A stretch of 64,000 bases of DNA. Origin: a virus. Of the stretch, positions 49,343 through 49,408 are shown one piece after another. The stretch's first letter is position 1; each line of letters begins with the position of its first letter. Under the pieces are notes generated by a model that did no database searches, was not told the DNA's origin, and saw nothing but the letters and a program-made list of their open reading frames with translations. Made by a program: the position numbers and the translations under genes. The DNA lies in UHGV virus genome UHGV-0149956, one strand, 5' to 3'.

Positions 49343-49359
49343 ATTGCTCTAATAATTCC
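49343..49359 (+). promoter_or_regulatory. C1-operator-like 17-mer (left member of inverted pair)
   Basis: ATTGCTCTAATAATTCC, 14/17. Confidence 0.5.
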
Positions 49360-49367
49360 ATATTTTT

Positions 49368-49395
49368 AAAACGTGATGTACACTCATCACGTTTT
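49368..49395. terminator. Perfect 11-bp-stem hairpin, bidirectional terminator candidate
   Basis: AAAACGTGATG-tacact-CATCACGTTTT, flanked by A/T runs on both sides. Confidence 0.55.
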
Positions 49396-49408
49396 TTATT
49401 AGAGCAAT
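49392..49408 (-). promoter_or_regulatory. C1-operator-like 17-mer (right member of inverted pair)
   Basis: Reverse complement reads ATTGCTCTAATAAAAAA, 14/17. Confidence 0.5.

Follow-up and report, generated by a model that had tools for sequence, protein, structure and literature searches.

A C1 operator pair, a probable terminator and a candidate promoter share the pmgQ–pmgR intergenic region of P1-type phages

Two inverted sites resembling operators of the C1 repressor surround a perfect hairpin at positions 49343–49408 of UHGV virus genome UHGV-0149956 (of which the 64,000-nucleotide stretch analysed here is referred to as the window). This raises the question of how repressor binding, termination and initiation are shared out within 66 bp, which the preliminary description had answered with a repressor that binds directly on a bidirectional terminator between two operons. 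The reading favored here, to which we assign a probability of about 80%, is that the element corresponds to OpmgRa/OpmgRb of a P1-type phage and shares the 81-bp intergenic region between pmgQ and pmgR with a terminator and a promoter.

The window belongs to a P1-like phage(-plasmid), with 98.7% identity to P1 when compared over 48600–51000, and the locus is present in 19 phage records and 689 plasmid records. The 66-bp element is base-for-base the same in P1 and P7, at an equal place and in an equal orientation, and a few substitutions with respect to P1 are seen directly outside it. The window ends at approximately P1 coordinate 89617, and the c1 gene (P1 93231–94082) falls beyond it; the reference genomes carry this gene, and L215 has a C1 homologue close to the locus. 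An Rfam search yielded no family at 49343–49408.

Elsewhere in the window, Rfam revealed features typical of a P1-type genome, namely the immI C4 antisense RNA, its targets a1/b1 and three tRNA genes (C4/tRNA positions 15513–15565, 15634–15719, 36254–36404 and 37848–37920). A hok/sok-type toxin–antitoxin module was found at 19168–19342 (Rfam sok, 114.9 bits); some P1-like phages have it as well (annotated MokW in MH422554). A query with 18900–19500 gave any match in 83 phage records, six of which cover at least 80% of it and do not include the reference P1 and P7. The module looks like accessory cargo of the phage-plasmid. Moreover, collinearity with P1 ends at 52373 and resumes at 59253, the intervening ca. 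6.9 kb (52373–59253) replacing part of the P1 pmgT–pmgV region. This segment is a mosaic, of which the best phage record covers at most 45%, with pieces shared with SJ46, with P1-like phages and with Stx-converting lambdoid phages (EaA protein).

Judged by annotation and by sequence match, both sites are C1 operators. The left one, OpmgRa (former Op86a; ATTGCTCTAATAATTCC), occupies 49343–49359 on the + strand and equals P1 82152–82168, annotated as “monovalent C1-controlled operator OpmgRa”, and the right one, OpmgRb (former Op86b; ATTGCTCTAATAAAAAA), occupies 49392–49408 on the − strand and equals P1 82201–82217, annotated as OpmgRb. The P1 record (AF234172) states that OpmgRa “controls expression of pmgR and pmgS”, and the P7 record annotates both sites as Op(sht[a]) and Op(sht[b]). 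The naming of these operators predates the 2004 P1 record, which speaks of “former Op86a/Op86b”, and full-text literature searches by operator name (Op86 among others) gave no relevant paper. The operator pair is, in other words, already known and its control of pmgR and pmgS already annotated, and since the element is annotated in the P1 and P7 GenBank records it matters little for discovery.

When scored against the asymmetric 17-bp C1 consensus (ATTGCTCTAATAAATTT), either operator matches at 14 of 17 positions, the three mismatches all being located at positions 14–17, and the 13-bp core is perfect (13/13) in both, thereby surpassing the cores of the annotated Olpa/Op94, Oc1a and Oc1c operators. 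Across the window, nine C1 sites with at most three mismatches were counted vs. 0.32 expected (a number reached by none of 100 shuffles), and the 12-mer core TTGCTCTAATAA was matched eight times vs. 0.34 expected. The preliminary description had thus located both inverted sites exactly, coinciding base for base with the annotated P1/P7 operators, and its 11-bp-stem hairpin was likewise exact. The sites bracket the hairpin asymmetrically, OpmgRa lying 8 bp away from it, whereas OpmgRb overlaps the T-run and the four final bases of the 3′ arm. The gap between both operators measures 32 bp, and their centres are 49 bp (ca. 4.7 helical turns) apart.

The element is flanked by genes that all lie on the + strand. 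Upstream lies pmgQ (P7 hdmD; 48640–49341 in the ORF list and by P1 annotation), the last gene of the upstream operon, with its TAA stop codon at 49339–49341 and a PHROG 1962 “glycosyltransferase” assignment (E 1e-127). The P1 record assigns to this upstream operon a late promoter as well as separate C1 operators (O26/Op82 and Oppp/Op83). Downstream, a Shine-Dalgarno-like AAGGTG (49413–49418, +) is situated 4 nt ahead of the start codon of pmgR (P7 shtA; 49423–49641, by P1 annotation; PHROG 3177), an essential gene whose P1 deletion phenotype has been reported (PMC9024508), and pmgR is followed by pmgS (P7 shtB; 49643–50905), which encodes a protein of 420 aa (PHROG 1660 “PmgS-like head morphogenesis”, E 4e-195). 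A strong terminator-like hairpin followed by T5, identified by a scan at 50925–50953 on the + strand (11 pairs, 6 of which G-C; tail TTTTTCGTCC), closes the pmgR–pmgS unit.

Relatives of the locus were found by blastn, and by a homologous-protein search followed by location of the encoding contigs. A PmgS scan of genome contigs yielded only two near-identical E. coli loci, and viral contigs scanned with a PmgS alignment yielded only loci of 99–100% identity. More diverged loci were found in Cronobacter phage JK004 (72% DNA identity), in Salmonella plasmids and in metagenomic contigs, the PmgS proteins of the latter being 63%, 53% and 27% identical to that of the window. The exact operator pair occurs in more than 120 IMG/VR contigs, every one of which represents the pmgQ–pmgR locus. 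Among the relatives, the OpmgRa core is kept in JK004, the Salmonella plasmids, L208/L210 and L213, and the OpmgRb core (TTGCTCTAAT) in all those with C1-type operators. In lineages with as little as 53% PmgS identity, operators, hairpin and 66-bp length are still kept together at the junction of a pmgQ-like and a pmgR-like gene. As for spacing, the window and the L003, L006, L208, L210 and L213 lineages all measure exactly 66 bp from operator to operator, although the hairpin has moved by 1 nt in L208/L210 and has been re-registered in L213; the exceptions are three rare 67-bp variants with slippage in the T-run or A-run.

The most distant locus (L212; Logan contig ERR12361609_339, 2654–2763), with a PmgS that is 27% identical, carries two inverted 15-mers (AAGATACTAATTTAT) 17 bp apart at the pmgQ/pmgR-like junction. 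These flank a sigma-70 promoter candidate (TTTACA-17-GATATT) and enclose no inner hairpin. From its sequence, this locus seems to share the architecture while having an operator pair suited to a repressor of another specificity.

The hairpin itself extends over 49368–49395 on the + strand, starting 26 nt past the pmgQ stop codon, and consists of a perfect 11-bp stem (5′ arm AAAACGTGATG at 49368–49378 and 3′ arm CATCACGTTTT at 49385–49395) around a 6-nt loop, TACACT (49379–49384). The G+C part of the stem is followed by the T-tract TTTTTTATT (49392–49400), which gives an RNA tail of U6AUU. Folding of the 86-nt region on the + strand gave −26.9 kcal/mol vs. −9.2 ± 2.2 for shuffles (z = −8.0), and on the − strand a z of −6.5. 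The hairpin alone reaches −12.9 kcal/mol on the + strand and −12.4 on the − strand of the window.

Comparison of the relatives separated both strands more clearly. The stem arms change from AAAACGTGATG/CATCACGTTTT in P1 to AAAACATGGTG/CACCATGTTTT in the Salmonella lineage, GAAGCATGGTG/CGCCATGTTTT in JK004 and AAGGTGTGGTG/CGCCACATCTT in L208, and several of these changes yield G.U or U.G pairs that are valid in the + strand RNA only. With the 28-nt hairpins aligned in register (as MAFFT on the full 66-mers had mis-registered the outer stem of L208/L210), 95% of the cells pair among 20 distinct variants and 4 of the 11 pairs are altered on both sides, vs. 33–67% paired in slid-partner controls. 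On the + strand, every lineage keeps a hairpin of −13 to −16 kcal/mol, whereas the − strand hairpin drops to −5.8 (JK004) and −7.1 kcal/mol (L208). In L213, the 3′ arm is rearranged, yet an 11-bp hairpin is formed in another register and followed by T-rich sequence (a T6 run). This comparative evidence bears the signature of an RNA hairpin selected on the + strand, rather than of a DNA palindrome or a bidirectional terminator, and the hairpin most likely ends transcripts of the upstream pmgQ operon as an intrinsic terminator that works in one direction.

The T-tract is kept in the P1, P7, Salmonella, JK004 and L213 lineages but degraded (CTTGATT) in L208/L210, suggesting that the hairpin may have a role beyond termination. 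A simple terminator scan of the window did not list the hairpin at 49368–49395, which we attribute to the maximal stem taking up four Ts and leaving 4 Ts in the 8-nt tail. No terminator is annotated at the locus in P1 or P7, but as the ca. 16 kb of the P1 record that were examined contain zero terminator features anywhere, this absence says little. In a read-through RNA (49335–49420, +), the operator halves would also pair with each other, enclosing the terminator hairpin in an outer stem of 13 bp and giving an interrupted helix of 24 bp and −26.9 kcal/mol; covariation is uninformative on an RNA role of this outer stem, since protein binding already conserves the operators.

Where transcription of pmgR and pmgS would start was approached by promoter scoring with a crude sigma-70 weight matrix, based on hexamer frequencies, for which AT-rich sequence also yields − strand candidates (in three lineages, one scoring as high as that on the + strand, 9.2). 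The sigma-70 promoter PpmgR, marked “predicted” in the P1 GenBank record, has its −35 box (TTGCTC, 49344–49349) inside Op86a and its −10 box (TAAAAC, 49367–49372) at a spacer of 17, thus spanning 49344–49372 on the + strand. It scores 4.0, a value attained by 53% of random 100-nt windows, and its −10 box is not conserved, reading TGAAGC in JK004 and TAAAGG in L208 and not being kept in L213. An alternative candidate combines a −35 box (TTCCAT, 49356–49361, +) overlapping the 3′ end of Op86a with the hairpin loop as −10 hexamer (i.e., TTCCAT-17-TACACT). In the window this candidate scores 5.2 (attained by 32% of random 100-nt windows), but at the equal position in relatives the scores rise to 7.4–10.8, and the top-scoring + strand candidate of each of the six lineages that carry C1-type operators uses the loop as −10, with a −35 box at operator positions 14–16 (TTTACT, TTTAAT or TTGATT in the relatives, at position 15 or 16). 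Moreover, loop positions T1, A2 and T6 (TAnnnT) are invariant in 20 of 20 variants (TACACT, TATCAT, TATTAT) while the stem covaries, a distribution of information content like that of a −10 hexamer.

The weight matrix is too weak to decide within the window itself, and the promoter call leans on positional conservation and on the analogy with the P1 promoter Plpa (see below). On these grounds, the promoter with its −10 in the loop is the better prediction; the PpmgR of the P1 record is probably misplaced, the TAnnnT hairpin loop being the better −10 candidate. Because the distant L212 has inverted 15-mers around a good promoter at this position, a repressible promoter ahead of pmgR also looks ancestral, as far as sequence can tell. 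An Lpa-dependent late promoter for pmgR was considered as well and discarded, since inspection by eye revealed no AAGTnACTT-like −22 box upstream (vs. those of LPpmgL, LPhot and LPpac).

Published RNA-seq data of P1vir (PMC8201110, Table S1), given per gene as log FC vs. time 0 (voom+limma, wild-type host), bear on both the terminator and the promoter. For pmgO, pmgP, ppp and pmgQ, values of 7.4, 7.0, 6.9 and 7.0 at 10 min increased to 11.8, 11.3, 11.5 and 11.7 at 30 min, i.e., a change of +4.3 to +4.6 (PMC8201110). Expression of pmgR went from 9.0 to 10.8 (+1.8) and that of pmgS from 10.0 to 11.7 (+1.7) over the same interval, both lying above pmgQ at 10 min (PMC8201110). The kinetics of pmgT and pmgU, which lie behind operator Op88, resembled those of pmgR/pmgS, and the pattern in a dksA host was as in the wild type (PMC8201110). 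The kinetic break thus falls exactly at the pmgQ–pmgR intergenic region, and pmgR–pmgS behave in these data as an early unit with its own promoter, independent of the upstream operon. The late boost of pmgO–pmgQ was largely not passed on to pmgR/pmgS, which is consistent with termination, bearing in mind that termination and differential RNA decay are inseparable in per-gene RNA-seq data. CRISPRi roadblocks in pmgO–pmgQ were reported not to be polar on the essential pmgR, an argument that carries little weight because knockdown of pmgR itself was without phenotype (PMC10695390).

In the arrangement that we propose, transcripts arriving from the upstream pmgL/pmgN–pmgQ operon would fold into the 11-bp hairpin, followed by U6AUU, and terminate. 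A sigma-70 promoter for pmgR–pmgS would lie inside the same element, with its −35 box over the 3′ end of Op86a and its −10 box provided by the loop TACACT, and would start transcription near 49391. As this start is located past the 5′ arm, the promoter’s own transcripts would lack that arm and would not terminate themselves. In a lysogen, C1 monomers on Op86a (over the −35 box) and on Op86b (approximately +1 to +17) would, from annotation and sequence, shut the promoter. When C1 is absent or inactivated, pmgR–pmgS would be switched on early and independently of the upstream operon, a course with which the RNA-seq kinetics are consistent. The claim that the downstream genes (49423–50905) are probably repressor-controlled is supported both by their annotation and by their behavior as an independently promoted early unit in P1vir RNA-seq. 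We regard it as distinctly unlikely that the element goes further and constitutes an integrated terminator–promoter–operator module, in which the terminator loop is at the same time the −10 box of the pmgR promoter and the fixed 66 bp lets two C1 monomers clamp promoter and termination site. Bound C1 would in that case not only prevent initiation but also, as a roadblock, insulate the unit more tightly against the upstream operon, and P1-like phage-plasmids would share in this element a conserved insulator that is compact and transferable.

Several alternatives were weighed against the favored combination of operators, terminator and loop-borne −10. That the promoter is instead the GenBank PpmgR, with its −10 box (TAAAAC) on the 5′ arm, a start in the loop and TAnnnT as a mere terminator loop, is unlikely in our estimation: its annotation in the P1 record, the presence of its hexamers in P1 and the Salmonella lineage at a score of 4.0, and the like layout predicted for P2pmgT at Op88 (−35 inside the operator) speak for it, but its −10 box lacks a conserved final T and is lost in JK004, L208 and L213, its score is attained by more than half (53%) of random windows, and it leaves the invariance of loop positions 1, 2 and 6 unexplained while the stem covaries. 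As for the hairpin, it would scarcely be a DNA palindrome for a dimeric protein, or a bidirectional terminator serving the − strand too. The palindrome is perfect in P1, with an A-run on its 5′ side and both strands folding equally well (−12.9 and −12.4 kcal/mol), but relatives break this symmetry and keep pairing in the + strand RNA only, the − strand falling to −5.8 and −7.1 kcal/mol in JK004 and L208. Moreover, the next annotated − strand gene downstream in P1 is lxr, ca. 4.6 kb off, and the nearest one upstream, gene 26, is transcribed away from the region. The bidirectional terminator of the preliminary description is hard to reconcile with this decay and with pmgQ, pmgR and pmgS all lying on the + strand; a terminator between two operons is credible, but these operons are co-directional (+ strand) rather than convergent.

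Both remaining alternatives assign C1 a role beyond blocking initiation, and both draw on the 66-bp length, which stays fixed despite the moved hairpin of L208/L210 and the re-registered one of L213 and is invariant across lineages save for rare 1-nt homopolymer slips. In one of them, which we hold to be very unlikely, the operators cooperate via C1–C1 contact in a short DNA loop or wrapped complex, the hairpin sequence being a spacer. Heinzel and colleagues are said to have described C1-mediated looping at the c1/Op99 region in 1994, which would offer a parallel, but with 49 bp (ca. 4.7 turns) between the centres there is very little room for a loop, the P1 record lists both sites as monovalent, and the spacer displays RNA-type covariation with G.U pairs, unlike a passive spacer. 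At 49 bp, the looped operator suggested earlier is sterically unlikely, with the invariant length as the sole hint in its favor. In the other, which seems to us highly improbable, C1 bound at the hairpin or beside it influences termination or read-through (e.g., as an Op86b-bound roadblock on the U-tract), so that transcription of pmgR–pmgS from upstream promoters would vary with the lysogenic state. The overlap of Op86b with the last four stem bases and the T-run is compatible with this, but the upstream operon has C1 operators annotated for itself (O26/Op82 and Oppp/Op83), so with C1 present there would be little transcription to modulate, and without C1 nothing is bound. Furthermore, the late pmgQ boost in lytic P1vir still stops before pmgR/pmgS, so that termination appears constitutive, which is the outcome that the preliminary description had itself set against its proposal of repressor-modulated termination.

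What is added here to the existing records are annotation-level refinements inferred from sequence comparison, i.e., a covariation-backed + strand terminator and a revised −10 candidate for pmgR. The terminator, which is unannotated in the P1 and P7 records, and the −10 revision are useful for P1 engineering and for reading polarity, e.g., of deletions or CRISPRi around the essential pmgR.

Among known systems, the element is without any difference from OpmgRa/OpmgRb of P1 and Op(sht[a])/Op(sht[b]) of P7. It also resembles the bivalent C1 operators of P1 (e.g., window 35575–35602) in consisting of two inverted C1 sites. In bivalent operators, however, the 17-bp sites overlap by 6 bp into an imperfect palindrome, whereas OpmgRa and OpmgRb do not overlap, lying 32 bp apart, and are annotated as monovalent.

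The closest parallel for the proposed promoter is Plpa, the C1-controlled promoter of the P1 late-activator gene lpa, of which the monovalent operator Olpa/Op94 overlaps the −35 box with its 3′ end, likewise as proposed here. With that operator numbered 1–17, the −35 box of Plpa begins at position 15 and is followed by a spacer of 16 and a −10 box (TATTAT) at position 37, a layout equal to that of the pmgR candidate in the relatives; the candidate in the window differs in having its −35 box at operator position 14 and a spacer of 17, with an equal −10 position. Unlike the pmgR locus, Plpa has no second inverted operator annotated downstream and, upon inspection of the sequence, no hairpin around its −10 box, and it is listed in the record without the qualifier “predicted” that the pmgR promoter carries. 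With the intrinsic terminators of enterobacteria and their phages, finally, the hairpin shares a stem of seven G+C-containing pairs with an A-U extension, a 6-nt loop and a U6AUU tail, and it departs from ordinary ones in having a repressor site over its U-tract, a probable −10 box in its loop and, in one lineage, a weak U-tract.
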